A DNA stretch of 64,000 nt, taken from the NCBI GenBank assembly GCA_037447235.1, contig JBBIHC010000003.1, positions 17,513-81,512 on the forward strand. Direction: 5' to 3'. The DNA is from Candidatus Micrarchaeota archaeon. GTDB taxonomy: Archaea; Micrarchaeota; Micrarchaeia; Anstonellales; Bilamarchaeaceae. The notes under the pieces were generated by a model. That model made no database searches. It had not been told where the DNA came from and saw nothing but the letters and a program-made list of their open reading frames with translations. The number at the start of each line of letters is the position of its first letter. Positions within the stretch are counted from its first letter, which is position 1. Shown piece by piece: positions 16,138-38,217 of this stretch. Both the position numbers and the translations under genes were made by a program.

Positions 16138-16185
16138 CGATCTTATTTGATTGATAATTATTTTAAAGAAGTTAGAAAACATAGA

Positions 16186-16277
16186 TGCGGCCGTCGGGAT
16201 TTGAACCCGAGTCGCAGGCTTGGAAGGCCCGAATCCTGACCGCTGTCCGCTGCTGCAAAACCCTAGACTACGGCCGC
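16186..16277 (-). tRNA. tRNA-Gly (anticodon UCC), about 92 nt, with about 18 extra nt in the D-arm / position 26-27 region (probable non-canonical intron(s))
   Basis: Acceptor GCGGCCG/CGGCCGC, T-arm UCGGG-UUCAAAU-CCCGA, anticodon stem CGGGC/GCCUG with loop CUUCCAA (UCC). The D-loop is 16 nt and 12 extra nt sit between position 26 and the anticodon stem. Confidence 0.65.
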
Positions 16278-22373: not shown

Positions 22374-25300
22374 TTATTTGTTATATGTGAACCAATTTCC
22401 GGATTTCTTGCACTCCAGTGGCTCATCGGGAGTTTTTGTTATCCCGCATATTTTTAACTCGCCTTTTGCTGTAATGATTGTCGGATCGGTAAAGCCACAG
22501 TCCTGCAGGAGGTTGTTTTGCGGGGTGCCTGAAAAGTTGCCTGAGAAAACGACCGGGACGGTGTTTATCGCATTCGTTTCCAGCCTCTTGAATGTGTAAA
22601 GCCTTCCTTCAGGATTCATCAGGCAGCACCTGTCCTCTTTTGGGAGCAACCCGATTATGTCAGCATCTGCTTCTGTGAGTTCAGAATAAGGTATATTTTT
22701 GAAATAAGTATGGGCCCCGTCAGAATAACTTCGCATAAGGCAGGTTATTTCATCCTGAATGTCGCTGCAAAGTCTGCATTTATTGCTTATGACGCCTTTC
22801 GGGCATTTGTAAGGTCCGCTCGTGCCTCCGCGCGGAACGCAGGTGGTCCCGTCCTCGCATACCATTGCCTCGTCAGGGCAGTATTCGCCTTCCGGGCATT
22901 CCTCGCAGTAGAGATAACCGGAAGGGGTCAAATCCCCATCGGCAACGTACCAGATGGTGCTACCGCCCGGTGCGACCTGAAAATCGTATTGCGGCGCGGT
23001 TGAGATCTCCCAGGTATCGCTATGGTAGAAAGAAGGTGTGGTGATGGACGAGGTATCAATGCCTCCTTTGCTTCCCCCGTCTCCTGAAGATTCTGAACTT
23101 CCTGTTTCAGCGCCTTCTTCTTCAGGCGGATACAGCGCTATGTTCGTAGTAAGGGTGGAAATGCCGATGAAATCGTATGTTCCCTCCTGGAAAGAGCAGA
23201 ATTTTGAGTCAAAGCTTCCCTGCTCCCGGACAATTGCAGCCTCATCTGAAGAAAACGGGGAATACACTATCCCGATAATTCCTGCCTTCCTGAGCTTGTC
23301 CCTTGAAAGGTAGATTGTGGAGAAGAAATCTGCATAAATTCTCCTGATGCTTTCCTTGTTCAGCTCATAGCTGGCGCCGCTCATGGCAGGCCAGCCTGTC
23401 CCTTCGCTGGTATTGATATTAAACACAATGACCACCGGCACAGGCTGTTTTTTGCCGATACCGCGGCTTATGTGGTTTATCGTCCATGCATAGGAATACA
23501 TCCGGTCAACAACAACATCAGCCTTTTCCTTTGCGGTCATGTCATCCCATTCGTCAAGCGCTGCATAATCGCGCATAACCTCAGCAACAGGGAAAAAGAC
23601 GACTGCCGCGTCAAAAGTGGTGGCTCCGCTGTCCCTCTCCGCCGCCCATATGTCGCTTATGGCAGAATAAGCATCCTGGTCAACATAGTTCATCCATATG
23701 TATTCCCCGCCCATATAAGAAGCGGAGGATGCGAAAAACGGCACAGCAACAAGGCAGTTTTCGCACCTGCTTTTCACCAGCCTTGATTCCTCCAATGCTC
23801 TGGCAGGATCAACTGAATGCCCTGTTCTGTCATAGCCAATCAACGCGATGACCGGCCCGACGCCTTTCACTTCCTTCTTGGGTTCGGTTATGATGCTGTA
23901 GCTGTACGGGGTGTATGTTCTTATGCTCCCTTCTTCATCGCACGCGATCGTCAGGCCGTTTTCGCTGACATGGCAGCTGGGATCGCTCAAATACCGGCTG
24001 TTGGCGTCCCTGAAATCAACGATCGGCAAAATGCCATTCTTCAAATAGTTGGTAAGCATGGAATAGGTAATGATGCGCTGATAAGAATAAACGACCCACT
24101 CTATCGCGTATTCTATACTGCCTCCCACCTCTCCAAAAGAACCGAATAATCCCCCGTCTTCACCCTCTTCGCTTTCCTCAGGCTCGACAGGCGCCTTTCC
24201 GTAAGCCATGGTGGCATAGGTGCACGGCTCGCACCAGCCATACTCTTCAAGCACAGGGAGATTGTTTTGCTCATCAAGCTCGCAATCCCCAAGGCCGAAT
24301 ATCAGCGTAAGGTATCTTGAAGCAAGAACATAATGGGTTTTGGTGCCGTCATTGTTCATATGCAGCTCTGCCGCATAATCGCTGTTTGAAGTGAAATCAA
24401 CATAATCAAGCATCTTGATTGTCTCATTTTGGGGGAGCGCGAAGACATTGTTCCTGGCCAGCGCCACGTATTCCGGCTTTTGAAGCCAGGTGCCGCTGCA
24501 TTCTGCCGGATAGCCCGCGTCGTTTTTGCACTTATAAAAAGCAAGCGCCCATGGCACGCTTGCAAGCGCGATCTGGCTTGAACTCGCGCGGTCTTCGTTT
24601 GACACCAATTCAGCCAGCGCTGCCTTCTGATTGTCTTCAAGATTCATAAGGGTCAGTGACAAACGCGGATTCTCCACGGCCGCTATCCAGGGCATAAAGT
24701 ACGTTGTGTCTATTACGACATAATCTTCATTTTCCCGCATATTGCAAATCTGGAAAATGTCGCTCTCCTGCGGCGAGGAAGGCACTCCGCCGGTCGCAAA
24801 GCCTATCACGGGTTTGTTTAAGCCTTCAAACCAACCATCATACACTATCGGGAAAGTGTCGTATGTCTTAGTCTGTTCATTAATTATCCTGAATTCGTTC
24901 TTGTTGAAAAAGTATACCGTTCGCGCAGGCGGGTATGCGGTATTGCTTTCATTTACCTGGAAACGATAGCACCAGTATATATCATGCAGGGGCTCCTCCC
25001 TAACATTTTTCCCAAGATCAAGCCAAGCAGGTCCATAATCCTCACTGCACGACTTGCCTGGTGTAAATAACGCCCGTATATCGCTATAAAACCCGGACGG
25101 GATTGTTCTTGTCTGCACAGTAACGGAACCGGCAACATTCTTCAAGGTGGATGGATATGAGGTGTACGGGCAGGGGATGGTATTATAACTCATGTCGCCG
25201 CAGCGGTCGGTCGCAAGAGCAATGGCAAGCTTGGTAAGCATGTTAACGCTGTCGCCCCCGGTAGGCTGGGTAAGCTCCTTGGAGTCATAACGATTGTCCC

Positions 25301-26492
25301 TTATTGCCATTTCCAAAGCATATACATCGATTGGCGTATATGTTATATTCGCGACCATAGTGCCATCAGGCAGCATCTCAAACGAGCGGTTTTCTACCGA
25401 GGTGCAGACAGCCACCTTTCTGCCGCTTATGTAATCGTAATAGCATTCAACCGGCACCTTTGAACCGTCGCGTTTCACGATGAATGAGCGGTGGTAATCC
25501 TGCTTGTTGCAGTTGCCTGACATGCATTCGCTTGAAGAGCACTCAAACGGCGCGGTCTTGTGCTGCACAAACATAAGGTCAAAATACTGCGCGGCAAGCG
25601 CCCGCCTGTAGAAAACACTGTCAAAAACGCCTCCGGAATCAACGCGATAGCCAGATGGGATCAATGTCTCCTGCGATTCCTTTGTGGTATAAAAGAACGG
25701 GTATCTCTCCCTTGATTCCAGCTTGTTCTCTTCGCTTACGCCCTCGGTGTAGGGGGCACACTCATATTTGGAAAGGTAAGCGGTCGGGCCCCCCAAAGAA
25801 GAGACGGAAACAAGCGAATCGCACGCTCCGGGTATTGCGCACATCTCAAAATAGTTCATATACCTGTCTATGCCAGTGGTCGGATTAACGCTGCAGAACA
25901 TATCTGTCGGCGGAAACAAGTATTTGTATTTCTCATAATCGCTGAATAGCAGGCTGTTGTTTCCTATTCCGAGCCTGAAGCTGTTCACAAGAGAGCCGGT
26001 CCTCTCGAGCAGTTTTGAAAGGTTTTCATCCATGTCAAAAAACTTGCAGTCAGCCTTGTAAAGCGAAACGCCGCTTTCCTCGCCGCTTGTGAGAGGCACC
26101 GCCGCACCGCTTTTCATCTCCTCCTCGGTGGGCATGGGCGGCGGCAGCTGCGGCCTGTAAAGGAAATTGCCGCAGACCATCGCTCTGCAGTCCGCCTCAA
26201 CGCAGGAGCGGTCTTCTTCTCCCCCGCATATCGGAACTTCGATCGTTGTCTCGCCCTTCGCCGGGTCGTTTAATGTTATGTTGCAGGTATTCCTGTTGAT
26301 GTCGCACCTGCTTGTTGCAGGATCGTAATCAATGTCAGCTGGAGGGTTTATGAGAATGCACCTGCCCTCCTCCTCAACAATAGTGCGGTTGCAGCAGCTC
26401 AGCTGCTGCGTCGGCGTGTCAAGCGGCTTCTCCGCGGTGCAGCCAAAAAAAAGCAGGAAAATCAAAAAAAGAATAAGCAGTTTCTTCATCAT
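22374..26492 (-). CDS. Giant (1372 aa) Cys-rich, N-glycosylation-sequon-rich secreted lipoprotein; terminal gene of the membrane-protein operon
   Basis: MMKKLLILFLIFLLFFGC signal peptide plus lipobox, more than 60 Cys (CxxC-type pairs), many N-x-S/T sequons, no further TM. 4-nt overlap with the upstream gene (26489-26492). Confidence 0.7.
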   Translation of the reverse strand: MMKKLLILFLIFLLFFGCTAEKPLDTPTQQLSCCNRTIVEEEGRCILINPPADIDYDPATSRCDINRNTCNITLNDPAKGETTIEVPICGGEEDRSCVEADCRAMVCGNFLYRPQLPPPMPTEEEMKSGAAVPLTSGEESGVSLYKADCKFFDMDENLSKLLERTGSLVNSFRLGIGNNSLLFSDYEKYKYLFPPTDMFCSVNPTTGIDRYMNYFEMCAIPGACDSLVSVSSLGGPTAYLSKYECAPYTEGVSEENKLESRERYPFFYTTKESQETLIPSGYRVDSGGVFDSVFYRRALAAQYFDLMFVQHKTAPFECSSSECMSGNCNKQDYHRSFIVKRDGSKVPVECYYDYISGRKVAVCTSVENRSFEMLPDGTMVANITYTPIDVYALEMAIRDNRYDSKELTQPTGGDSVNMLTKLAIALATDRCGDMSYNTIPCPYTSYPSTLKNVAGSVTVQTRTIPSGFYSDIRALFTPGKSCSEDYGPAWLDLGKNVREEPLHDIYWCYRFQVNESNTAYPPARTVYFFNKNEFRIINEQTKTYDTFPIVYDGWFEGLNKPVIGFATGGVPSSPQESDIFQICNMRENEDYVVIDTTYFMPWIAAVENPRLSLTLMNLEDNQKAALAELVSNEDRASSSQIALASVPWALAFYKCKNDAGYPAECSGTWLQKPEYVALARNNVFALPQNETIKMLDYVDFTSNSDYAAELHMNNDGTKTHYVLASRYLTLIFGLGDCELDEQNNLPVLEEYGWCEPCTYATMAYGKAPVEPEESEEGEDGGLFGSFGEVGGSIEYAIEWVVYSYQRIITYSMLTNYLKNGILPIVDFRDANSRYLSDPSCHVSENGLTIACDEEGSIRTYTPYSYSIITEPKKEVKGVGPVIALIGYDRTGHSVDPARALEESRLVKSRCENCLVAVPFFASSASYMGGEYIWMNYVDQDAYSAISDIWAAERDSGATTFDAAVVFFPVAEVMRDYAALDEWDDMTAKEKADVVVDRMYSYAWTINHISRGIGKKQPVPVVIVFNINTSEGTGWPAMSGASYELNKESIRRIYADFFSTIYLSRDKLRKAGIIGIVYSPFSSDEAAIVREQGSFDSKFCSFQEGTYDFIGISTLTTNIALYPPEEEGAETGSSESSGDGGSKGGIDTSSITTPSFYHSDTWEISTAPQYDFQVAPGGSTIWYVADGDLTPSGYLYCEECPEGEYCPDEAMVCEDGTTCVPRGGTSGPYKCPKGVISNKCRLCSDIQDEITCLMRSYSDGAHTYFKNIPYSELTEADADIIGLLPKEDRCCLMNPEGRLYTFKRLETNAINTVPVVFSGNFSGTPQNNLLQDCGFTDPTIITAKGELKICGITKTPDEPLECKKSGNWFTYNK

Positions 26493-27469
26493 ATCACCCT
26501 CGCTGTCATGCGCAGGAGATCATACGACTCCTCTCCAAAAATATAAATCAGATACCTGATTGCTATCAGCGTCATGAAAAACACTGCAAGAGGATGGATG
26601 ATTAGCGATGCATAAATCCTGGCAAGGTCGGTCGCGAGTGCGGTGTCGCTCGGGCTTGCAAATGCGCTTTCGCCTGTGGCAAAGTTCACCATTGAGACGA
26701 AAGATGAAAATGTCGGCAGGCAGAAGTTTGAGCCGGCCGGCGCTGCCGGCGCCTCCGGCTGCGGCAGCTTGACAAAACCCGGGTCGGTAATTATGAATAG
26801 GTAGGGGAAGATGAAGTAAAAGCCAAACGCGATTGCTATGAAAAGCGAGCCGATGCCCCTCGTGAAATAAAACGAGCGGAGAAGAAGGCCGAGCGGCAGG
26901 AAAAGCGTGAGCATGGACATCTTTATTAGGGCGATGAAGGTTATCAGGGCGTTCAGGGCGATGAGCAGGCTTATCGTGAGCGCATTCTTGTACCTGAACG
27001 ACTCGATCGTCTGGTAAAGGTCGCTCAGGTACTGGCCGGAAAATACCGGAATGCCGACAATGCTGAAATGGGTATAAAACAGGAAATAGGCGCTGTTTGC
27101 CTCGTCCCTTATCGCATTGTGAAGGCTTTCAAGCGCCACGGCCTTCTCAATTACCTTGCACTGCATCACGGCAAGCGCGCTGTCTATTCCCTGAACCGTG
27201 ATGGTTTGCCCTCCGCAGGATATTGTGCCATATATCTGGCTGTTTATGTAGTCTGAAAGGCTGCCAACTATAAGGACAAGAAAAACCGCAAGGAAGAAGG
27301 TGGCGGCAACCTGGAGCATTTCCGCCTTCGTATTCCGCTCAAGCTCTGCCAGGTTGAATGACCTCGCAAGAATGTATATCGTAATCTGGATTACCATCGC
27401 GATGAAAATCGCGGCAACGCAATACACCAGCCAACTTCCCCATACGGAAGACAGATCAGCCATAATCAC
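26489..27469 (-). CDS. Polytopic membrane protein, paralog 6 of a tandem FtsX-like family
   Basis: N-terminal TM, ectodomain, C-terminal TM block with LRSFYFTRGIGSLFIAIAFG motif and tail ...GEESYDLLRMTARVI. 4-nt overlaps on both sides. Confidence 0.6.
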   Translation of the reverse strand: MIMADLSSVWGSWLVYCVAAIFIAMVIQITIYILARSFNLAELERNTKAEMLQVAATFFLAVFLVLIVGSLSDYINSQIYGTISCGGQTITVQGIDSALAVMQCKVIEKAVALESLHNAIRDEANSAYFLFYTHFSIVGIPVFSGQYLSDLYQTIESFRYKNALTISLLIALNALITFIALIKMSMLTLFLPLGLLLRSFYFTRGIGSLFIAIAFGFYFIFPYLFIITDPGFVKLPQPEAPAAPAGSNFCLPTFSSFVSMVNFATGESAFASPSDTALATDLARIYASLIIHPLAVFFMTLIAIRYLIYIFGEESYDLLRMTARVI

Positions 27470-28515
27470 ACCAACTGACTTATTCTACTTAAATCTATGT
27501 CCTCCCCGTAAAACCTTGCGAAATAGCGGACAGTGGCAAGAGTGGCGGCAAGCGCAAGCGAAGGCAGGGCGAATGAGACGACAAACGCCTTGCCTGCTAT
27601 TGAAAGCACGGCAAAAAAGTCATCTTCGCCGTCAGGGAAGAATTTTTCCCTGAGCATGTCATCGTTAGTGTATTCCGTAGTGCCAAGCGCGCCCAGTATT
27701 GAGCCGTAAGCGAATTCGCTCCAGCCGCTCACGCTCTCAAACTTTCCTTCATCCAGGCTAAGGCGCTCCTCAAACAGTATGCTGTCGCTCGCAAGCGAGA
27801 AAACGGACAGCACGAGCGGATAGACTATGAAAAAGGCAAGGCAGACTGACATAAGAGCCGCGCCGAGGGAGCGCAGGTAGGGGAGGGAGCGGATGATGAC
27901 TGCGGCGGGCAGGAAGAAAAGAATGAAGCCCTTGTAAGCAAATAAAAGTATGAAAAGCATATTCGCGGATGTCAGAAAATAAAACAGCGTGGTGCCGAAA
28001 ATGGTGTTCAAAGCGCCGAACCTGCCCCCGTAATTTGCCAGCGGCGAGTATGAAGTCCCTGAGCTCCCGAAAAGGCAGCCAATTCCGCCAAGCGTGCAGT
28101 CAAATGAGTAGCGGTAGACGAAAATCGAGTATGCCGACAGATAGTAGCGCGTAACATTCATCGCATAGTGCGCATAATCGGTGGTCCTTAGCAGGTAATT
28201 CTCAGCCTCGTCAAATATATTGCCGCTGACTGCTGAATCCCCGCCAAACAGTCCTCTCACCGAGCCCGCATCAAGCGAGCAGAAGAGGTTCATGCCTGCG
28301 AGTATGAGGATAACTGCTGACAAAGACACGAAAAGCTGGACCAGCTCGGTCTTTGCCCAGGTAAGCAGCTTTGGGTGATTAAGCAGGAGGCCGATGTAAT
28401 ATGTGATTATGGTAACGACAAGGGCGAATACAGCCGCCCCGCCTGCAAGAGGGAGGATGGTATCATACATCAGCCCGCCGGCGCCAAGAAAACCTTCGCA
28501 AACTCCTGCCATCAA
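27466..28515 (-). CDS. Polytopic membrane protein, paralog 5 (FtsX-like C-terminal block)
   Basis: IIRSLPYLRSLGAALMSVCLAFF motif; tail ...ARFYGEDIDLSRISQLV. Confidence 0.6.
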   Translation of the reverse strand: MMAGVCEGFLGAGGLMYDTILPLAGGAAVFALVVTIITYYIGLLLNHPKLLTWAKTELVQLFVSLSAVILILAGMNLFCSLDAGSVRGLFGGDSAVSGNIFDEAENYLLRTTDYAHYAMNVTRYYLSAYSIFVYRYSFDCTLGGIGCLFGSSGTSYSPLANYGGRFGALNTIFGTTLFYFLTSANMLFILLFAYKGFILFFLPAAVIIRSLPYLRSLGAALMSVCLAFFIVYPLVLSVFSLASDSILFEERLSLDEGKFESVSGWSEFAYGSILGALGTTEYTNDDMLREKFFPDGEDDFFAVLSIAGKAFVVSFALPSLALAATLATVRYFARFYGEDIDLSRISQLV

Positions 28516-29456
28516 ATCAGCCTCGAAATAGCCGAAAGGTCGACCTCAATGCCGCCCAGAGCGGCAACCGCCCGTATGCCTGACACAAGAGCCAGCAGGT
28601 AAACAATCGGGAAAAGGATGCCCTTTATCAAAGCGTATCTGATTGCGGAATCGAGAAACTCCGTCATGCCCCTGAAAACGCCTATCGCCTCGTTTTCATT
28701 GTGGTTGACCGTGTCTACCGGGTCGCACTCGCTCACGCTGGCAGAATGGCTTATTGTCTCATCCGGATAAGCACTGGAATAAACTTCCTCCATCGCATAT
28801 ATCGTCAACGGAAGCACCACGTAAAGCGAAAACGCAGCCGCTATGAGGAACGCACCAAGCGGCCTCGTGAGCTTGAATGCGTGGAAAAACAATCCTGCCG
28901 GAAAGATGATGGTCATCCCGATGCTCGCGCCGAGCGCAACAAGCGTTGACAGGGAGGAATACTCTGCGAGAACAAAGGAGACTATGCCTACAGCCATATT
29001 TGCCGGTGATGATAGTACGGAATAGCCGCCGCAGGAAGTCGTCGTGATGGATGCGGAAAAGACCTGGCAGATGTCCATTTTTGAGCCTTCTACGGAAACC
29101 TTTTCATAGGTTGCAATGTTGTCAAAAATGACTGAGAAGGTGGCGAGCGTTCCTGACAGGGCGGCATTCGTTTTGTCGCGCAGCCCGCCCTCGCCCATCA
29201 TGCTGTCCAACCCTTCTGATATGACCACGAACGAGCCCAAAAGAACAGCCGTCACGAGCAGGTGATAAAGCTCATCCTTGGCGGTTATCTCCAGTGTCTG
29301 TATGCCAAACCCCCGCCCGGCCATAAATAGCAGTATCAGCACCATTGCAGACAGCGTTAGCGCAACCGCCCCTGCTTCCATAAAAGGCGGCTTGCCTGCG
29401 GCAAGGCAAACGGAACAAAGAAGAATCAGGAAAAAGATTGCCTTGTCCTTCATCAT
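28512..29456 (-). CDS. Polytopic membrane protein, paralog 4 (FtsX-like C-terminal block)
   Basis: Signal/TM MMKDKAIFFLILLCSVCLAAG; motif FHAFKLTRPLGAFLIAAAFS; tail ...GIRAVAALGGIEVDLSAISRLI. Confidence 0.6.
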   Translation of the reverse strand: MMKDKAIFFLILLCSVCLAAGKPPFMEAGAVALTLSAMVLILLFMAGRGFGIQTLEITAKDELYHLLVTAVLLGSFVVISEGLDSMMGEGGLRDKTNAALSGTLATFSVIFDNIATYEKVSVEGSKMDICQVFSASITTTSCGGYSVLSSPANMAVGIVSFVLAEYSSLSTLVALGASIGMTIIFPAGLFFHAFKLTRPLGAFLIAAAFSLYVVLPLTIYAMEEVYSSAYPDETISHSASVSECDPVDTVNHNENEAIGVFRGMTEFLDSAIRYALIKGILFPIVYLLALVSGIRAVAALGGIEVDLSAISRLI

Positions 29457-31384
29457 AACACCTTTGCCAAGCCAGGTATCTCTATGTCGCCGCCCAAAAA
29501 CCTTGAAAATGAGCGGATGAACATTACCGTAACCAGCACGTTAAAGAGAGGCAAAAGATAGACCGGCACGAGGAGTTTGGATACATTTGTCAGTATTGTG
29601 GGGCCGATGTTGCCCTCAACCAGCAGCTTGACATCCTCCCCGGTTTTCTGCTTCCCGGTCGGTTTTGGCGTGCATAAGGCCTTGCACTCGTCGTCCGGCC
29701 TTATCGGCGGGTTGTAAAGATATGCCTTCTCGGTGAATATGCACCCGGTGCAATCAGGATTGTTCGGCTTTGGATAAACATAAACGCAGGTATTCTGGGC
29801 TATGTCAAGCGCATCGCCAGAAGGCGGAAGCGCAGGCCTTTCGCACTTTTCCGCCCAGGTGCATTGCGTAATCGCGTTTCTTATTTCCTTCTTATCTGCT
29901 TTTTTTGATTGCAATTCCCTTACCTTCTCCTCCCAGGCAGGCGTGCCGTCGTGGTAGTAAACCCTGCAATCCAATTTTGAAAATAGGCAACAGGAGACCA
30001 GGGCAGGGCTGTTTGGGTCGTCGCATGCAACATTGCCGAAACAGTTGTTTTTCAGCGGAGGGATTATCTTGCATTCATCAGGGCAGCTCCCGCTCTGTTC
30101 CGTGTCAACATTTTCAACAAACCTGACAAGCTTGCATTTTTCAGTAAGCCAGCCGCAGCTAACCTGGTTTGAATAATTGGCGCACTCGCCGGACCAGTAG
30201 GGATAAGGCAACTGCCTGCACTGGGCCGGGCATGGCGTGATGTCAACTACAAGACCCCCTGTTTCCAATTGCATGTATTTTTGCGCTTCATATTCGCAGG
30301 AAAATATCGTTTTTCCCCCAACCACATACTTGTCAAGAGCGCCGCTAGACAGGTTAATTGCCAGCTCCACCGCCCGCTCCATATTCTCCTCTGGGGCGCA
30401 CGGGTCGCTTTCCTGCAGCGAGTCAAAGATAAGGGCGGACAGCTCTTCACTATCATTAAACTGCACGAGCCTGCCCCCGACCTCCATATAGGCAACCGGC
30501 ACCTCCTTCTGGCATTCTGCAGGGCAGTCAGCGCCGAATGCGGAGAACGGCGCATCACCGTAAAGCGTTATCTGCATCGCAAGCCAGTCAAATATGTACA
30601 TAAGCGGGAGGACAACCATTATGCCGATTGCAATGGCAATCAGCAGGCCGCCAAGCCGCCGGGTGAAGAAGAATGACCTTCCAAAAATGCCGAAGGCAAG
30701 CAGAATCGGACCGATGGAGGGGCCGACTTTTGTCACGAAGAACTTTTGCGCCTCTATTGATGAAAAGAGATTTTGGTAATATTCAAAGACCGCGGCGGCC
30801 CTCTCGCTGTTCAAAACAGCCCTTCCGGTATCCCAGTTCGGCAAACTCATCCCGAACTGCAGGCACGGAATGGGGAATATCAGGTCGCTGCAATAGACAT
30901 TGTATCTTGCGCTGATGGTCTTCACATTTTCCACGGATTCCTTCAATGCGGCAAGCGCGTTTTCCTTTATCGTTGATGAGTAGTCCTCGAAATAAAACGA
31001 AGCCGTCTCGTCAAGGCACGAGCCCCAGGCGCAGGCTAAGCCAGGCACACGGCTCTCGGTAACAAGATAGCCTGTAAGAAACTCGACAAATGCCAAAACC
31101 CCGACAAACGCCGCGCATATTATCGCAGTCGCAATTATCTGCGACACTTCGGCCTGCGCCCACGCCTTCAGGTCGGGCATTTCAAAACCGATTCCAAGCA
31201 TATATGCAAGGCTGACTGCCACTGCGGATATCACAAGTGCGAGCACGATGGCGCTCTGCCAATTGGTCAAAAGCCCGCACGCCTGCTGCATCCAGGGCGT
31301 TTTAAGGCTGTCGCAGCCGCCTGGCTCCGAAGATGGCTGGCACTCCTCTGCAGCAGCAAGAGAAAGCAACGCGAACAGCATCAA
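29453..31384 (-). CDS. Polytopic membrane protein, paralog 3, with a large Cys-rich extracytoplasmic insert
   Basis: Motif GRSFFFTRRLGGLLIAIAIG; about 320-aa insert with about 30 Cys (CPAEC, CPAQC, CPDEC, CTGC); tail ...FSRFLGGDIEIPGLAKVL. Confidence 0.6.
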   Translation of the reverse strand: MMLFALLSLAAAEECQPSSEPGGCDSLKTPWMQQACGLLTNWQSAIVLALVISAVAVSLAYMLGIGFEMPDLKAWAQAEVSQIIATAIICAAFVGVLAFVEFLTGYLVTESRVPGLACAWGSCLDETASFYFEDYSSTIKENALAALKESVENVKTISARYNVYCSDLIFPIPCLQFGMSLPNWDTGRAVLNSERAAAVFEYYQNLFSSIEAQKFFVTKVGPSIGPILLAFGIFGRSFFFTRRLGGLLIAIAIGIMVVLPLMYIFDWLAMQITLYGDAPFSAFGADCPAECQKEVPVAYMEVGGRLVQFNDSEELSALIFDSLQESDPCAPEENMERAVELAINLSSGALDKYVVGGKTIFSCEYEAQKYMQLETGGLVVDITPCPAQCRQLPYPYWSGECANYSNQVSCGWLTEKCKLVRFVENVDTEQSGSCPDECKIIPPLKNNCFGNVACDDPNSPALVSCCLFSKLDCRVYYHDGTPAWEEKVRELQSKKADKKEIRNAITQCTWAEKCERPALPPSGDALDIAQNTCVYVYPKPNNPDCTGCIFTEKAYLYNPPIRPDDECKALCTPKPTGKQKTGEDVKLLVEGNIGPTILTNVSKLLVPVYLLPLFNVLVTVMFIRSFSRFLGGDIEIPGLAKVL

Positions 31385-31398
31385 TAACCATTTAAGTT

Positions 31399-32379
31399 TC
31401 AGCCAATCACCCGCAATGCCTTGTCAACTGCCATAACAAAAGTTATCGTTAGGGCAATTGTAAGATTCGGAAGGAAGAATGCCATGGGCACAAGCCGTGC
31501 GACCATCCAGAGGGAAAGCGGAGAAGCGCAGACATCAAAGCCAAGCTCCCTGTCCAGCGGCTTGTCAGCGAAAATTGACGCGTATTTGCCGCAATCGTCA
31601 AACACCGAATAGTACATGAAAAAATTAAACGCGAGAAACAGGGGAAATACCGCGTACAGCGCGAGGCAGATGCCAAGCAGGATGTTGCCTGCAGAGCGGA
31701 AAGGAGGAAAGAAGCGGAAGACAAAGGCTATTGGCAGTATCCAGGCGACTATCGTGTCGCTTATCAGTTTCACGATGACCTTCTGGATGCTTACTGAAAG
31801 CCGTGCCGGAAAGATGTATGTGTTTAGTATAATGTCTATTTCGCTTGCATACACGCGCTTATAAGATTCCATATATGTTGTCTTCGTGCTTCCTCTTATA
31901 ATGTCGCCGGCGCTATAAGCCCAGCCGGCGTCCTGCAGGTATTTCAATTGATGTTTTGTAAGCTGATAAATCATATTGTCAACTTCGTTTTCTATGACGC
32001 CCAGGCTGCAGCCGGCAAAATCGATAGGGCTGACCTGGACCGGGCAGGGACTGTAGACTGTTAGCGATGAAGCGCCAAATTCAATGAAAGCCTGCGAGAA
32101 TACGCAGCCTATTGCGATAACGCCGCCAAAGCACACCAGAAAGATGGCTGAGAGAACAAGATGGTACATTTCGTCCTGCGCCAGAATAACATACTCCGGC
32201 CTCTCAAAAAACCTTCCTGCCAGATAGAGTATTATGGTAGCGGCTATGCCCAGGCTGATAACCGCGGCGAGAAGAGTCCCCTGCTCTGAAATCACTGTGC
32301 TTAAGACATCCACGGTGCAGGATTCAAGATAAGCGAAAGAAAATGCAGGGAGCAGCAATGCAAGAAACAGCAGTCTCAT
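31399..32379 (-). CDS. Polytopic membrane protein, paralog 2 (FtsX-like C-terminal block, divergent tail)
   Basis: Signal MRLLFLALLLPAFSFAYL; motif FVFRFFPPFRSAGNILLGICLALYAVFP; ends ...DKALRVIG. Confidence 0.55.
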   Translation of the reverse strand: MRLLFLALLLPAFSFAYLESCTVDVLSTVISEQGTLLAAVISLGIAATIILYLAGRFFERPEYVILAQDEMYHLVLSAIFLVCFGGVIAIGCVFSQAFIEFGASSLTVYSPCPVQVSPIDFAGCSLGVIENEVDNMIYQLTKHQLKYLQDAGWAYSAGDIIRGSTKTTYMESYKRVYASEIDIILNTYIFPARLSVSIQKVIVKLISDTIVAWILPIAFVFRFFPPFRSAGNILLGICLALYAVFPLFLAFNFFMYYSVFDDCGKYASIFADKPLDRELGFDVCASPLSLWMVARLVPMAFFLPNLTIALTITFVMAVDKALRVIG

Positions 32380-33614
32380 ATTAATTTCTCCACCCCGGGC
32401 AGGTATATTTCCCCTCCGAGCGCGGCGGAAAGCGAGCGGATGCCGCCGATGGTTATCGTGCCTATCAGGAGGACATTGACATAGGAGACAACTATCAAGG
32501 TGTTGACATCCTTCAAGAATGCATAAACGATGTCAAACGCCTTTTCAACATCAAAGTTCATGGTCAGCATGTCAAGCCCCATGACCATGGCGCTAAGGCC
32601 GAGCGATGAAAGCGAAGCAAGCAGCGGATAGACCACATTGGCAACAAGTTGGAAACACGATGCAAAAAGACCCGGGCCGGCGATTGGGATAAGCAGAAGC
32701 GGGGAGCAGACAATCGCGGCGAAAACGCTTTCGCCCATGGCCAGGGCAGTCCTCAGAACTTCTCCTATGGTGCTTGTGCAAAACAGCGAAAAAAGCCCTC
32801 TTCCGAAAGCGCCTTCCTTGCCTGCGGCAAGCACGCTCAGGTCCCTTGAAGCCAAAGAAGGCGATGGAACGCCTATGACATCATTGAGCTGGTCCATAAG
32901 AATGACGGAAAGCGGAAAAAATATTGCAAGGCCGAGGGCGACCGCAATAAGAGTATTCCCAAGGCTTCTTGTCAGTGGAAAAGCCCTGAAGGAGAATGCT
33001 GCCGGAAAGAGAAAGTGTGGAACCACGATGAAAAAGAAGTCCAGCAGAACTGCTATCGCCTTGTAAAGAAAAAGAACATTCGTCATCCCGCCTCCGGCGG
33101 CCGTAAGCGACGATAGCAGAGGATAGACGCCGCCGTACCGCGATGAAGAGAACCCGGCATAGATTATAAAGCCTAGCGAGGCGTAGCTTGAGTATGTTGA
33201 GACAAAACGGAGCCGGGCAGCGGCTTTTATCAGCGATTCGTATGCAGCAGTCACCTTGCCGGCCATTCCGCTAACCGCGCTTTCCGCAGCTGATTTCGTG
33301 CAATCAACATCGGTAAATCCCTTGACGATAAGGTCGCTTGAAGCGACAAATGCAAGGAATACCACAAAAAGAACAGCGGTTACAATGACTTCCCTGAATT
33401 CGTTTTTTATCCAGGCATCAAGCTGCGGCATGCCGAATGCTCCGGAGAATGTTTTTATTATTGAAAGGAAAACGATTGTGACAATGAGAACCGCAACCGG
33501 CAATGTTGCGTATTCGCTTGCCGCGTAATCGGAAATGGAATCAACCGGCGAGCAGGCATCGCTGGCAAATGACAGCGTTGCCAGGAGCAAAAAAACTACG
33601 GCAAACAAACGCAT
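32376..33614 (-). CDS. Polytopic membrane protein, paralog 1 (first gene of the operon)
   Basis: Signal MRLFAVVFLLLATLSFASDA; motif FSFRAFPLTRSLGNTLIAVALG; tail ...IRSLSAALGGEIYLPGVEKLI. ATG at 33614 preferred over the TTG at 33629. Confidence 0.6.
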   Translation of the reverse strand: MRLFAVVFLLLATLSFASDACSPVDSISDYAASEYATLPVAVLIVTIVFLSIIKTFSGAFGMPQLDAWIKNEFREVIVTAVLFVVFLAFVASSDLIVKGFTDVDCTKSAAESAVSGMAGKVTAAYESLIKAAARLRFVSTYSSYASLGFIIYAGFSSSRYGGVYPLLSSLTAAGGGMTNVLFLYKAIAVLLDFFFIVVPHFLFPAAFSFRAFPLTRSLGNTLIAVALGLAIFFPLSVILMDQLNDVIGVPSPSLASRDLSVLAAGKEGAFGRGLFSLFCTSTIGEVLRTALAMGESVFAAIVCSPLLLIPIAGPGLFASCFQLVANVVYPLLASLSSLGLSAMVMGLDMLTMNFDVEKAFDIVYAFLKDVNTLIVVSYVNVLLIGTITIGGIRSLSAALGGEIYLPGVEKLI

Positions 33615-33634
33615 ATGCCATATTCTCAAATAAA

Positions 33635-33642
33635 TATTTAAA
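33635..33642 (-). promoter_or_regulatory. TATA-box-like element (TTTAAATA on minus strand) about 20-28 nt upstream of the first membrane-paralog gene
   Basis: Plus-strand tatttaaa at 33635-33642. AT-rich context consistent with archaeal TATA/BRE spacing for a leaderless transcript. Confidence 0.3.
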
Positions 33643-33668
33643 GATTGCTTACAAAGAGCAGATTTAGG

Positions 33669-34976
33669 TCATTCTACCGCTATGTAAAGGGTTGGGTCAC
33701 GAGTTAGACCCAGCATGTCATTTAATTCTCCAACGTATACGATATTGTATGCTGTTACATAATTTACTGCTAAAATAGGGGTATCTGGTTCTATTTTTAG
33801 TTTCAAAGCATCCATAAGGTTATTAGCTGGGATTACATAAAACCGTACATAAGTAACGACTCCGCGGATATTGTTCTGGGCCCTATACTCTTCAGATAAG
33901 GGGCCGGCATGAATGCCAAATTCAATAATAGAAGTTGCGTACTTTAGGTCTTTGCCTTTCATTGCCTTGTATACCTCTTCCAATATATCAAATTTCACGA
34001 TAAGAGGATAGCCTTGTTTTATATGTATTGTACGTTTATACTGTATTTCTATTGCATGCGCATACTCAGACCCGTATTCCACAATCCCTAAACCTCCATA
34101 GCTTGAGGGATTGGTTTGTTCTGGGGAGACCAATTCGTATTCAAGTAAACGTGTGTAAGGAGTAATAACTAGAGATTTTGGGAAGTTTGCGATTTTTGGA
34201 TGTTCTGGAAGAACGAGTCTCGCCACCAAAACATTCTCGGTGAACTTCGCATACTCAATGAGACCGGGGTTCCCAAGCGCGAAGTCAAATGTGTGGCGAA
34301 TGTCTGTGTTTTGTCTAAAAATTATGGGATTCAAAAGTGATGAAATGTATATGCTAAACACAGGAAATTTATATTTATTCGGTGCTCTCAAATTAGATAT
34401 TAACAATGGTGTAAAACCTGTCTGTTTGTCAATATCGTGAATGTAGATATGGCCTTCGTCAGTAACATAAGGAAAATTTATATTTATTGGGGGTTTTGTT
34501 GTAGAATAGCTATCAACCACCTGCTTAAACAAATTTGCCTCAATAATGTTTTTTTGTAAAAGAAGCTGAAGTTTTTTGATCTTGATTTCTTGGAATTTTA
34601 TTTCTTTTCCGTTTAAGTGTTTAGTAACAAACTTATGATGATCGGTCGAAGGATCTGGGGATAAAAGTGATTCTAGTATTGGAGGGGCTCGACGTGGTAA
34701 AAGCGCCTCGTCCACTTCAAATTCATCATCATTCTTTTCTAATTTCTTTTCTAATTGTTTAACAACCTGGTGTTTGTCTCCAGGTTCTTCAGGCTTAGTG
34801 TTTTCAGCAGCTTTACTGTTGATTAAGCCGCAACAGGTCAATAAGCCTGCAACAAGTACTCTACTCTTTAGTAGTTTTGCTAATGGGCTTTTAAGCGGGC
34901 CTTTAAGCTGCAGGCTTGGAGTGTTTTCAGATAATGGATGCCCATACCTAATCTTTTTCGTAACACCACGCTCCAC
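33669..34976 (-). CDS. Secreted hypothetical protein encoded by a markedly AT-rich gene
   Basis: 435-aa ORF with N-terminal hydrophobic segment (VLVAGLLTCCGLINS). GC by eye about 35-38%, versus about 50-55% in flanking genes. Confidence 0.5.
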   Translation of the reverse strand: MERGVTKKIRYGHPLSENTPSLQLKGPLKSPLAKLLKSRVLVAGLLTCCGLINSKAAENTKPEEPGDKHQVVKQLEKKLEKNDDEFEVDEALLPRRAPPILESLLSPDPSTDHHKFVTKHLNGKEIKFQEIKIKKLQLLLQKNIIEANLFKQVVDSYSTTKPPININFPYVTDEGHIYIHDIDKQTGFTPLLISNLRAPNKYKFPVFSIYISSLLNPIIFRQNTDIRHTFDFALGNPGLIEYAKFTENVLVARLVLPEHPKIANFPKSLVITPYTRLLEYELVSPEQTNPSSYGGLGIVEYGSEYAHAIEIQYKRTIHIKQGYPLIVKFDILEEVYKAMKGKDLKYATSIIEFGIHAGPLSEEYRAQNNIRGVVTYVRFYVIPANNLMDALKLKIEPDTPILAVNYVTAYNIVYVGELNDMLGLTRDPTLYIAVE

Positions 34977-35087
34977 TTTTTACAATATTATTTAGGCTGC
35001 AAGCTTTTATAAATTTATTTAATTTTTCATTACTTTAAAAATCTGGCAACGAGTAAGCTTTTTAAGTGCTTACGATGGAAACACATC
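34977..35087. promoter_or_regulatory. AT-rich divergent intergenic region with multiple TATA-like boxes
   Basis: ttttataaattt and ctttaaaaat lie between divergently oriented genes at 33669..34976(-) and 35088..37925(+). Confidence 0.3.
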
Positions 35088-37925
35088 ATGAATAGGAATA
35101 TCTTGTTTTTGCTGCTTTTTTTGCCTCTTTTGTACGCGCAGACGGAGGAATGCGTCAAATGCGAAGAGGTGGCGTTGCTTACGCCAACAAAAATGGTTGT
35201 TCTCTCTGATGAGATAAACCATCTTCTAAGAATAAGCCTGTACAACGCCACAAGCAGACAACCGCTCCCCAATGCCGTCATAATAATACATCGATATAAT
35301 GGCACCGTGCACGCTTTTGAGAAGGTCTTCACAGACGAAAGAGGCAGCGCCACATATAATTTTTCTGCTTACAAGGACGGCTGCTATACCTACCAGATGC
35401 TTTTTTGCTCGTGCGAAAAGGATGCTGTAAAAAAGTGCTGCTTTGAGATAAACAACATAGACATAACAAAGCCTGGCATCCCGGACAGCATGGATGACAT
35501 CCCGTTGGCGCCGAATCAGCCGCAACTGGAACCTTCCGAAATAATATATGACTACAGAGCATTCCCGAGCACTGAGATTTACTCGTACTGCAGGCCGCAA
35601 GCCGAAGCAGCTTCAACCCCGGCATTCTGCCTTCCGCTCGCAATAATTTTTGCCCTTTTGGGCGGAAGCCTGATGCTGACCGGAAGAAATCCGCTGCGGG
35701 GGTTTGATCTTGGCGGTATCAGGGTTGGAAGACACATAAAGTACGAAAGCAGGGGCCGTTTTGCCGGCTATACCGTCTCGCCTGTCCAGGTAACTGGCGT
35801 AATCAGAAAAGCAAAGGCGGAGAAGGTGGAGAAAGCAGTGGCGGCAACAGGAGAAGCAAAAGGACGGGTCGGCACGATAGCAGACAGGTTCAGGCGTCAG
35901 GTTATAACCCCTGTAAAGGGAGTGCCGGCCGGCATAAAGCAGGCAAAAGGAGCGATGGCTGCGGCAAAGAAGGACCTATCGAAAGGGGCAAGCGGAATTG
36001 CAGCACAGTATAAAGAGGCTGGAAAATTACTCGGCAGGGCTGGTCTTCAGGCGATTAGCACGCCAATCGATGCGCTCCGCACTTCAACTGGCGGACCGGA
36101 GATGATGATCGGACCGGATGGAAGACCGATACCGATAAGGCGTGGTGCAGAAATGAAGGGCGGCGGCGTGAGCGGCATATTTGCGTTGCTCGGGGCAATC
36201 CTGCCAGCCAAGATAAATGTGCAAAAGCTTCAGGCAGATTGCTATGAGCTGCTAAAGACAAGGGGCGAGCGAATAGCTGAAAAAATGATGTTGCAGGAAA
36301 AGCTTGAACTGCTTATTGAGAGAACAAAGGAGCTGACTGCTTTTCAGCCGGTCAAAGAAAAAGGAGGAAAGAAATACGAAAATGTTTCATTCACTCTTGA
36401 AAAAGCACGTCCGCCAAAGGTTGAAGGGCATGAAGTATTAAACGAAGCAACAACACCGGACGGAAAAAAAGCGTTCGTTGCAGGAAGAGAAGATGGATCA
36501 GTGGTTCTTGTTCCGGAAGGCACGCCTTTATACGGCAAGTTTATCCAGAAAATTAAAGAAAGCGAAGAAACGGTTGGAAAAATCAGGGTGGAAATACCCG
36601 GAAATGGCGTATACAGCATAGAAAAGGATGAAAAGGGGAAGATAAGAGTATACAAAGATGGGGATGCGATAGACATAAAAGACCCCAAAGTGCAGGAAAG
36701 CATAATAAAAGACCCCGCATACCGCGGGTTTCGCGGGGACGCCGGGCTTACCTTTACCAAGATAAATGTGGGCGGCAGGGGGTACTCTTTTTCAAAAAAC
36801 GATAAAGGCGAAATTTCAGTTTATGCAACTATAATGCCAGAAAACGTAACAAAAACAAATCTAGGTGCAGGAATTGTTGCGGCTTATAAAGAGGCAATAA
36901 AGGCAAATTCTGATTTCGTTATAGGCAAAAAAAGCGAGATTCTAATGTCCTATAATGAAGCAATGGCCGAATGGCAACAAGCCAAAGAAGTGGTCCGTGC
37001 TTCGCAGGTCGAGTTCGTGAAAAGCAATCTGGAAGAGGCAAAAACCGGGTTTTTGGAACAGCCTGAAACAATAGAGGCCGCTGACAAGATAATGGTTGAC
37101 AAAGTCAAAGGATATGTTGAAATGCTGGAAGAAAGTGCAGAAAAAATCAAGCCTTCCACCCGCACAGAAAAAAAGCTGCAGCAGAGAATTTTGGACGATG
37201 CTGACATGCTGAGGGAGGGTATTGCGCTTATAGGGGAATATGGAAAAGCCGCAATGCCTGAAAAACTAAAAGCAGAGGAGCGCGTAACGATAGAGCAACG
37301 CGTAAGCGGAGCAAAAGAAAAGCCAGGGGAGATCACCAGGGTTGAAGAAAAGATAGAGGAATACAATAAAAAAGTAAACGGAGAATTGGGCGAAATAATG
37401 AATGAATTGGCTGCCGGAATGGACGCGACGGCTTTTAGGATCAGGATGCGGCAGGCGGAGGGCCTGTCTTCAGTCAGGGACTATCTGGAGAGCAAAGCAG
37501 AGGGCAGCAGGGAGAAAGCGGTTGGCATATCAACTAATCTTCTTAGTAATGAAGAACTTGACAAGATGGTGCAAAAGAACCCTGGCCATCCATTCACGGG
37601 AGCGGCTGAATTGGAACGCCTGACAAGACATATTTCTAATTACTATGCAGACCTTTATAGAAGACAGGATTATGGGAAGCAAGAAGTTGGGCCTTCAAGA
37701 ACACTGGAATATGAAAAGCGGCTTGACGAGCTTGCCGCTTCAGAAGGATTAGTGCTGAAAGACATGATAACAAACAGGGAACGTGTTGAATTTATCAAAC
37801 AAACAAAGGGCCTATTGGCTAACGAGCATAGCAAGCTTGAAGAAGAAGAGCAGAGCCCACCATCAGTTTCTGCCGATAGCGGTGAGAAGAACAAAACAGC
37901 TGCCAAAAACGACAAGAGCACATAA
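35088..37925 (+). CDS. Type-I membrane protein (945 aa): Cys-rich ectodomain, single TM, long coiled-coil/charged cytoplasmic region
   Basis: Signal MNRNILFLLLFLPLLYAQT, ectodomain with CVKCEE/CSCEKDAVKKCC and sequons, TM AFCLPLAIIFALLGGSLMLTG, then a long K/E-rich helical region. Confidence 0.6.
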   Translation: MNRNILFLLLFLPLLYAQTEECVKCEEVALLTPTKMVVLSDEINHLLRISLYNATSRQPLPNAVIIIHRYNGTVHAFEKVFTDERGSATYNFSAYKDGCYTYQMLFCSCEKDAVKKCCFEINNIDITKPGIPDSMDDIPLAPNQPQLEPSEIIYDYRAFPSTEIYSYCRPQAEAASTPAFCLPLAIIFALLGGSLMLTGRNPLRGFDLGGIRVGRHIKYESRGRFAGYTVSPVQVTGVIRKAKAEKVEKAVAATGEAKGRVGTIADRFRRQVITPVKGVPAGIKQAKGAMAAAKKDLSKGASGIAAQYKEAGKLLGRAGLQAISTPIDALRTSTGGPEMMIGPDGRPIPIRRGAEMKGGGVSGIFALLGAILPAKINVQKLQADCYELLKTRGERIAEKMMLQEKLELLIERTKELTAFQPVKEKGGKKYENVSFTLEKARPPKVEGHEVLNEATTPDGKKAFVAGREDGSVVLVPEGTPLYGKFIQKIKESEETVGKIRVEIPGNGVYSIEKDEKGKIRVYKDGDAIDIKDPKVQESIIKDPAYRGFRGDAGLTFTKINVGGRGYSFSKNDKGEISVYATIMPENVTKTNLGAGIVAAYKEAIKANSDFVIGKKSEILMSYNEAMAEWQQAKEVVRASQVEFVKSNLEEAKTGFLEQPETIEAADKIMVDKVKGYVEMLEESAEKIKPSTRTEKKLQQRILDDADMLREGIALIGEYGKAAMPEKLKAEERVTIEQRVSGAKEKPGEITRVEEKIEEYNKKVNGELGEIMNELAAGMDATAFRIRMRQAEGLSSVRDYLESKAEGSREKAVGISTNLLSNEELDKMVQKNPGHPFTGAAELERLTRHISNYYADLYRRQDYGKQEVGPSRTLEYEKRLDELAASEGLVLKDMITNRERVEFIKQTKGLLANEHSKLEEEEQSPPSVSADSGEKNKTAAKNDKST

Positions 37926-37946
37926 GTACCTGTAAGAAAACCTAAA

Positions 37947-37981
37947 AACGGCTGCGGTGGCAGTAGAAAACCGTCGTCCAC
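37947..37981 (+). terminator. GC-rich hairpin downstream of the 945-aa gene (possible terminator/structured 3' end)
   Basis: GCGGTGG-N17-CCACCGC inverted repeat 20 nt after the stop codon; no clean T-tract. Confidence 0.2.
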
Positions 37982-38083
37982 CGCTCCTATAAAACATTAG
38001 CATAACAGAGAAAACAGTAAGAAGCGAAGAAAACAGAAAGAAAACCTAAAAAGATTAAAATAAGTTGTTTTATTATCTTGATT

Positions 38084-38217
38084 GGGCCTGTAGCTCAACT
38101 TGGACAGAGCGCCTGGCTTCGGATGCGCTCTCCTGAATGCAGGAGTGACCAGGCGGTTGTGGGTTCAAAAGCCTTGTGCCGTCTCAGACGGCTTGGCTGG
38201 CAATCCTGCCAGGCCCG
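38084..38217 (+). tRNA. tRNA-Arg (anticodon UCG), 134-nt precursor with two introns: 25 nt at canonical 37/38 and 34 nt in the T-loop/T-stem junction
   Basis: Acceptor GGGCCUG/CAGGCCC, D-arm GCUC-AACUUGGACA-GAGC, anticodon stem CCUGG/CCAGG with loop CUUCGG|A. Intron 1 at 38123-38147 has a CUCCUG-AAUG-CAGGAG hairpin. T-stem GUGGG, loop UUCAAAA. Intron 2 at 38171-38204 has a GCCGUC-UCA-GACGGC hairpin, then CCUGC. Confidence 0.6.

Follow-up and report, generated by a model that had tools for sequence, protein, structure and literature searches.

A tRNA-Arg(UCG) gene of a Micrarchaeota archaeon with a canonical intron and a predicted T-loop intron of the bulge-helix-bulge type

The closest described system is that of ARMAN-2 (Ca. 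Micrarchaeum acidiphilum), in which 56% of the tRNA genes are disrupted and introns at position 59/60 occur in tRNA-Cys and tRNA-Pro (PMC3239211). The three-unit ε2 splicing endonuclease of this archaeon cleaves both strict and relaxed bulge-helix-bulge (BHB) motifs in vitro (PMC3239211; PMC6379350). According to reviews, relaxed motifs are handled efficiently only by (αβ)2 and ε2 enzymes (PMC6379350, PMC12397907); for the α4 and α'2 enzymes, the BHB has to be strict (PMC3239211). For the tRNA introns of Thermoproteales, copying from one site to another has been proposed (PMC4090602).

The gene described here lies in a 64-kb stretch of DNA, the whole of which was analysed and is hereafter called the window. 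Its lineage was read from RadA, encoded 750 nt downstream of the tRNA-Arg gene (Pfam Rad51, E 3e-90). In a collection with one genome per species (GTDB), the closest relative of this RadA belonged to a Ca. Bilamarchaeaceae metagenome-assembled genome (92% identity), and the next ~60 matches were labelled Micrarchaeota, Micrarchaeia or Anstonellaceae. RadA similarity places the host in Micrarchaeota (Archaea; Micrarchaeia; Anstonellales; Bilamarchaeaceae). The housekeeping genes of the window included those for aIF2/5B, the proteasome alpha subunit, PCNA, GatD/GatE, FtsZ, AglB/STT3 and a radical-SAM enzyme of wyosine synthesis. An initial sequence-only reading had described the tRNA-Arg gene as a rare two-intron gene of a kind known mainly from Thermoproteales and a few uncultured lineages. 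The two introns, one of them in the T-loop, were upheld by the present analysis, but within its own lineage the gene is less of a rarity than that reading implied, as such genes are common and are documented in Micrarchaeota (ARMAN-2), and the lineage here is Micrarchaeota rather than Thermoproteales.

The locus shares with ARMAN-2 the class Micrarchaeia, the 59/60 site, a 25-nt canonical intron, more than one intron per gene and a relaxed BHB at the T-loop site, and processing by a broad-specificity ε2 enzyme would be expected here as well. It differs in its order, being Anstonellales/Bilamarchaeaceae-like whereas ARMAN-2 belongs to Micrarchaeales, and in the tRNA concerned (Arg-UCG). The predicted 59/60 intron is also longer (34 nt); its motif has both bulges and one mismatched central pair, in contrast to the hBH type of ARMAN-2 tRNA-Cys.

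As summarized in Table 1, the gene consists of three exons and two introns. It reads GGGCCUG UA GCUC AACUUGGACA GAGC G CCUGG CUUCGG (25 nt) A CCAGG CGGUU GUGGG UUCAAA (34 nt) U CCUGC CAGGCCC G, and the 3' CCA is not encoded. In its unspliced form the gene was missed by ARAGORN at default settings, which called tRNA-Gly(UCC) alone in the whole window; at the gathering threshold Rfam gave no match over the gene, and a permissive scan of the unspliced DNA with the Rfam tRNA model yielded a partial match of 17.7 bits. Upon removal of both segments, ARAGORN with default thresholds recognized a regular 75-nt tRNA-Arg(TCG), a regular cloverleaf having A20 and C35. No tRNA was called when intron 1 alone was removed, and when intron 2 alone was removed, the tRNA called still contained a canonical intron of 25 nt, located where intron 1 lies. 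These results bore out the earlier claim that a cloverleaf forms only after two segments are taken out of the 134 nt.

As a control for chance, we used a splice-and-scan procedure modelled on SPLITS, in which all pairs of positions separated by 10-120 nt, on either strand of the window, were filtered for BHB potential (at least 3/4 central pairs and at least 2 bp in each flanking helix) and each product was submitted to ARAGORN. From 41,173 candidates, the sole new junction-spanning tRNA was tRNA-Arg(TCG), joined at 38169/38170 and 38203/38204 and containing the canonical intron too; apart from it, the calls that crossed a junction comprised a poor 94-nt version of the same gene and artefacts involving the known tRNA-Gly. 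No further hidden tRNAs were found in the window by a permissive whole-window Rfam scan and low-threshold ARAGORN. Self-splicing introns of group I or group II were rejected, as no Rfam intron family matched and the inserts are 25 and 34 nt long, and a split or permuted tRNA was ruled out by the colinearity of the exons within 134 nt. We consider it very probable that a Micrarchaeota (DPANN) archaeon has at this locus a functional tRNA-Arg(UCG) gene with two protein-spliced, BHB-type introns.

Table 1. Coordinates of the tRNA-Arg(UCG) gene, its predicted splicing motifs, neighbouring features and related loci. Positions are those of the window unless another locus is named; slashes within motifs mark predicted cuts.
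Feature	Position	Strand	Description
tRNA-Arg(UCG) gene	38084-38217	+	134 nt, three exons, two introns
Exon 1	38084..38122	+	tRNA positions 1-37: acceptor 5' strand, D-arm with A20, anticodon-stem 5' strand, UCG, G37
Intron 1	38123..38147	+	25 nt, position 37/38, AUGCGCUCUCCUGAAUGCAGGAGUG; reported by ARAGORN intron mode
Exon 2	38148..38169	+	positions 38-59: A38, anticodon-stem 3' strand, variable loop CGGUU, T-stem 5' strand GUGGG, T-loop portion UUCAAA
Intron 2	38170..38203	+	34 nt, non-canonical T-loop position 59/60, AGCCUUGUGCCGUCUCAGACGGCUUGGCUGGCAA; best BHB-compatible junction
Exon 3	38204..38217	+	positions 60-73: U60, T-stem 3' strand CCUGC, acceptor 3' strand CAGGCCC, discriminator G
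Intron 1 BHB	38117..38148	+	strict hBHBh' motif
Intron 1 central helix	38117-38120 x 38142-38145	+	CUUC x GGAG, 4/4 pairs
Intron 1 bulges	38121-38123, 38146-38148	+	GG/A and UG/A, 3 nt each
Intron 1 inner helix	38124-38127 x 38138-38141	+	UGCG x UGCA, 4 bp
Intron 2 BHB	38164..38204	+	relaxed
Intron 2 central helix	38164-38167 x 38198-38201	+	UUCA x UGGC, 3/4 pairs, U54·C mismatch
Intron 2 bulges	38168-38170, 38202-38204	+	AA/A and AA/U, 3 nt each
Intron 2 inner helix	38171-38173 x 38195-38197	+	GCC x GGC; inner hairpin 38178-38192
A/T-rich box	38050..38064	+	AAAGATTAAAATAAG; TATA-like TTAAAATA at -29..-22 from tRNA 5' end
AGAAAAC array	37935-38045	+	five exact copies in 111 nt
Nine large upstream ORFs	22374-37925		~15 kb
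tRNA-Gly(UCC)	16184-16257	-	no intron, T-loop UUCAAAU; Rfam 30.7 bits over 16186-16243 (threshold 29 bits)
AAA_33/KTI12-like protein	9849-11330	+	493 aa
Wyosine-formation enzyme	11331-12308	-	radical SAM, Taw1/TYW1-like
Gene in window			canonical + T-loop (34 nt) introns
Gene in L118 (Logan ERR11489087)			canonical + T-loop (34 nt) introns; three point changes relative to the window
Gene in L119 (= L120 = L082; ENA / JGI)			canonical + T-loop (31 nt) introns; exons identical to the window, inner hairpin different
Gene in L125 (Logan SRR23854659)			D-loop (43 nt) + canonical + T-loop (33 nt) introns; third inner hairpin in T-loop intron
D-loop introns	L125 541-584; L003 882-924		43 nt, after nucleotide 17; position and length common to both
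Coding gene abutting the 80-aa ORF	L001 2200-2560		also in L121 (233 aa), L126 and L127 (178 aa)
Interrupted RadA	L009 314-2713; L058 2210-4788		interruption of ~1.4 kb

Intron 1, which the sequence-only reading had likewise defined as 25 nt following position 37, was confirmed by ARAGORN and by its strict BHB. The anticodon stem serves as the outer helix, so that the motif has flanking helices of 7 and 4 bp, and the predicted joint of exons 1 and 2 reads ...GCUUCGG/ACCAGGC.... As far as the canonical class of archaeal tRNA introns is described in the source citing it (Marck and Grosjean 2003, cited in PMC6379350), intron 1 fits the strict hBHBh' type fully, having the position 37/38, the 3-4-3 geometry and the two flanking helices. 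The motif was 100% paired and its strict geometry was kept in all four related genes. Within the inner helix, the pair 38127:38138 was G:U, G:U, G:C and A:U across the four genes; with n = 4 sequences, this covariation was not significant, its observed score being reached by 375 of 500 shuffles. Both internal hairpins pointed out at the outset, CUCCUG/CAGGAG in intron 1 and GCCGUC-UCA-GACGGC in intron 2, are present. The former, conserved to the same degree as the intron 1 BHB, is a second way of folding these bases; it competes with the BHB and is not a part of it.

The junctions were placed on the assumption that, within each 3-nt bulge, the archaeal splicing endonuclease cleaves behind the second base. 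This rule was checked solely on intron 1, whose position at 37/38 is fixed by the anticodon loop. Applied to the second insert, it gave a motif with the 5-bp T-stem as the outer helix and a predicted joint of exons 2 and 3 of ...GGUUCAAA/UCCUGCC..., or in longer form ...GGGUUCAAA/UCCUGCCAGG.... Only the relaxed class fits this motif, which departs from the strict hBHBh' class, as that class is described in the source cited for intron 1, by its non-canonical site and one central-helix mismatch. The elements of a relaxed BHB, namely at least one bulge, a helix, a flanking helix and a non-canonical site, were found in the window gene and in those of L118, L119 and L125 alike, in the form of the 5-bp T-stem, a 3-bp central helix, two 3-nt bulges and an inner helix of 3-6 bp, and the junctions of intron 2 were the same in the three relatives.

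The initial reading had put intron 2 one base further downstream, at 38171-38204 (60/61), leaving a mature T-loop of UUCAAAA; its T-loop location and its length of 34 nt stood, but its boundaries did not. The product of this 60/61 splicing is also accepted by ARAGORN as a 75-nt tRNA-Arg. Direct reading of its junction, however, gave 1/4 central-helix pairs as compared with 3/4 for the shifted one, and the junction was missing among the BHB candidates. Removal of 38170-38203 instead yields the T-loop UUCAAAU, which is also that of the window tRNA-Gly and of the intron-less tRNA-Arg gene in a relative (L004), thus assigning the intron to 59/60 and not 60/61; A60 would be unusual here, U60 being present in both of those genes, and the ARMAN-2 precedents sit at 59/60. 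A 60/61 intron is accordingly very improbable, and the following description refers to the 59/60 junctions.

In the minimum-energy fold of the T-arm, AGCC/GGCU was paired with a 6x6 internal loop and the 3-bp central helix of the intron 2 BHB was absent. Because this fold is preferred, the BHB of intron 2 would need stabilization by the enzyme. AGCC/GGCU itself was considered as the central helix in an alternative register and was rejected, since the spliced product was not a tRNA. For the whole precursor, the folding energy was -59.3 kcal/mol when the four cloverleaf stems were enforced and -59.4 at the unconstrained minimum.

Related genes were reached via homologues of an 80-aa ORF lying just downstream of the tRNA-Arg gene; an exact-protein look-up of this ORF returned no record. 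Three distinct relatives were obtained from other assemblies (L118, L119 = L120 = L082, and L125), and both BHBs were kept in all of them. As MAFFT misaligned the L125 gene owing to its extra intron, the genes were partitioned by anchors instead. The exons differed from those of the window at 0-2 of 75 nt, in the D-loop only (37-39/39 identical positions in exon 1, 22/22 in exon 2 and 14/14 in exon 3), while identity fell to 84-96% in intron 1, ~70% in intron 2 and ~62-67% in the flanks. A metagenome scan with a 21-mer from exon 1 retrieved 36 bacterial tRNA-Arg genes and one true relative (L082).

This pattern bears on the view that the locus is a decaying or disrupted pseudogene whose two inserts are junk that is never removed. 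Such a view might draw on the failure of standard tRNA finders to detect the gene, on the two G·U pairs in its T-stem, and on the lack of a tRNA at this locus in L001, whose genome is the closest of the collection (RadA 92%). Yet the exons and the BHB-forming intron ends have been kept while the interiors and flanks diverged, which argues for selection and against a pseudogene; furthermore, the mature cloverleaf is regular with A20 and C35 in place, and the promoter-like box is conserved. A pseudogene is hence very improbable. The last alternative, a single-intron tRNA whose second insert is retained as a structured expansion forming a very long extra arm, can practically be dismissed: ARAGORN does draw a 94-nt 'tRNA-Arg' using the GCCGUC/GACGGC hairpin as T-arm, but only at thresholds lowered below the default and with a mismatched acceptor stem, and this hairpin is swapped for unrelated sequence in L119 and L125 whereas the true T-arm halves are invariant. 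No single-intron fold with a good score, which the sequence-only reading had named as the outcome that would speak against it, was thus obtained, and its core, a tRNA-Arg(UCG) with a canonical 25-nt intron and a T-loop intron, is supported.

The intron content of the RadA-adjacent locus was found to vary. ARAGORN together with splice-and-scan identified two further tRNA-Arg(TCG) copies: that of L004 (Bilamarchaeaceae, RadA 83%), upstream of RadA, has no intron, and in that of L003 (Micrarchaeota, RadA 78%) a 43-nt intron interrupts the D-loop after nucleotide 17 and a canonical intron of 25 nt, clearly akin to intron 1 of the window, is also present, with no T-loop intron. The series thus runs from none (L004) through D-loop plus canonical (L003) and canonical plus T-loop (window, L118, L119) to three introns in a single tRNA gene (L125). 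The D-loop introns of L003 and L125 form a perfect 4-bp BHB central helix, for which two D-stem bases are borrowed. A compensatory exon-intron change was seen in this helix, where base 12 of the exon pairs with the final base of the strand contributed by the intron, as G12:C in L003 and as U12:A in L125.

At the RadA locus of L001 and several other relatives, no tRNA was present. In L001, L121, L126 and L127, a coding gene abuts the 80-aa ORF where the window has the tRNA, indicating that tRNA-Arg has moved or been lost there within the family. A BLAST search of the tRNA against 80 RadA loci gave no match, as related genes there differ or are absent. In two Micrarchaeota relatives (L009 and L058), RadA itself was interrupted, between residues ~276 and ~262-316 of the alignment, by what may be an intein or other insertion.

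The ends of the introns hinted at how the T-loop intron may have originated. In L003, the D-loop intron has the ends AGCCUUG...AGGCUUGCAA (also written AGCCUUG...GGCUUGCAA), and the T-loop introns have AGCCUUG...GGCUGGCAA. Over six loci, the L003 D-loop intron and the T-loop introns matched at 16-17 of 20 terminal positions, a match that is partly tied to pairing; the distinct versions of the T-loop intron matched one another at 16-18 of 20, and canonical introns matched either kind at 4-8 of 20. In addition, the C that faces U54 without pairing in the T-loop BHB has its counterpart in the C pairing with G12 at the D-loop site, so that the U54·C mismatch has the look of a relic. On these similarities it is conceivable, and we suggest it tentatively, that in this lineage of Micrarchaeia the D-loop intron of the tRNA-Arg gene was copied within that gene to give the intron at the T-loop site (59/60). 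Viral contigs yielded 120 matches to the motif of the intron ends, all attributed to chance and none of them situated in a tRNA context.

Parallels exist in the multi-intron genes of Thermoproteales (Sugahara et al. 2008, Fujishima et al. 2010), to the extent that these are described in the papers citing them (PMC4090602, PMC3239211): a gene may hold up to three BHB introns, located in the D-loop, the anticodon loop and the T-loop, and similar introns are found at differing positions. As characterized in the same papers, those genes differ in belonging to another phylum with an (αβ)2 enzyme, whereas ε2 would be expected here; the similarity in the present case concerns two sites of one tRNA gene family at six loci.

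The sequence-only reading had proposed that the second intron would require an endonuclease of relaxed specificity. By analogy with ARMAN-2, intron 2 would indeed be among those processed by a splicing endonuclease of broad specificity, as found in archaea, and this assignment is supported; since α4 and α'2 enzymes need a strict BHB, they are not expected to cut it. With a query comprising most of the ARMAN-2 enzyme sequence, rebuilt from a PDB alignment (4fz2), 1415 ε2 homologues with E<=1e-10 were retrieved; those listed were typically 385-390 aa long with PF01974 and PF02778, and the source-named ones among the matches listed were mostly labelled Micrarchaeota or Micrarchaeia. None of the best 120 of the 1415 was labelled Bilamarchaeaceae or Anstonellales. 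Pfam scans identified no endonuclease (PF01974/PF02778) or ligase gene in the 64-kb window, and a tBLASTn search of all collected DNA with M. jannaschii EndA gave one spurious antisense match, in L020. An ε2 endonuclease is expected for the source genome from its lineage.

In the proposed processing route, the 134-nt precursor would be transcribed from the A/T-rich promoter ~25 nt upstream, and the exon-intron junction pairs would fold into BHBs, strict for intron 1 and relaxed for intron 2, the latter with the T-stem for its outer helix and with bases U55-A57 of the T-loop supplying one strand of its central helix. The splicing endonuclease, expected to be an ε2 enzyme with broad specificity, would then cut each 3-nt bulge after its second base, and an RNA ligase would join the three exons to give the 75-nt tRNA with the T-loop UUCAAAU.

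The A/T-rich box upstream of the gene is a putative archaeal BRE/TATA promoter, and similar boxes at about -30..-22 were read from the sequences of L118, L119, L125, L003 and L004. Among 32 Pfam-supported genes of the window, CGA and CGG together made up 101 of 703 Arg codons, indicating that the genome uses the codons read by tRNA-Arg(UCG). Between the stop of a 945-aa ORF and the promoter-like box lies an array of the heptamer AGAAAAC, which occurred 34 times in the whole window on both strands, compared with 13.3 expected. Four exact copies were found in the 80 nt upstream of the L004 tRNA-Arg, and none in L003, L119 or L125; these repeats could be an upstream regulatory array.

The region directly upstream of the tRNA holds nine large ORFs (1372, 326, 349, 314, 643, 326, 417, 435 and 945 aa) with no Pfam match (E<=1e-5 or 1e-3). 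In L119 and L125, a weak homologue of the 945-aa ORF (30-34% identity) likewise precedes the tRNA, and the G+C content falls to 0.43-0.47 across 34 to 42 kb of the window. Elsewhere in the window, the 493-aa protein with AAA_33/KTI12-like kinase domains adjoins the gene for the Taw1/TYW1-like enzyme; both are candidates for RNA/tRNA processing or modification, and neither is a splicing endonuclease or RtcB ligase.

The gene type and its processing enzyme are already described in Micrarchaeota, and the current understanding is not overturned; there is some novelty only in the series of intron presence and absence and in the similarity of the D-loop and T-loop introns. For annotation, as standard tRNA finders miss the gene, the genome would seem to be without a decoder of CGA/CGG, and Micrarchaeota call for intron-aware tools. 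The range of multi-intron tRNA genes with 59/60 introns is extended from ARMAN-2 (Micrarchaeales) to a second, Anstonellales-like order, which is consistent with the idea that broad-specificity ε2 endonucleases let introns spread. If the copying suggested above is true, it would represent transposition of a tRNA intron outside Thermoproteales. With its series of 0, 2, 2 and 3 introns and the common ends of its D-loop and T-loop introns, this gene family offers a small, tractable case for the gain and loss of archaeal tRNA introns.
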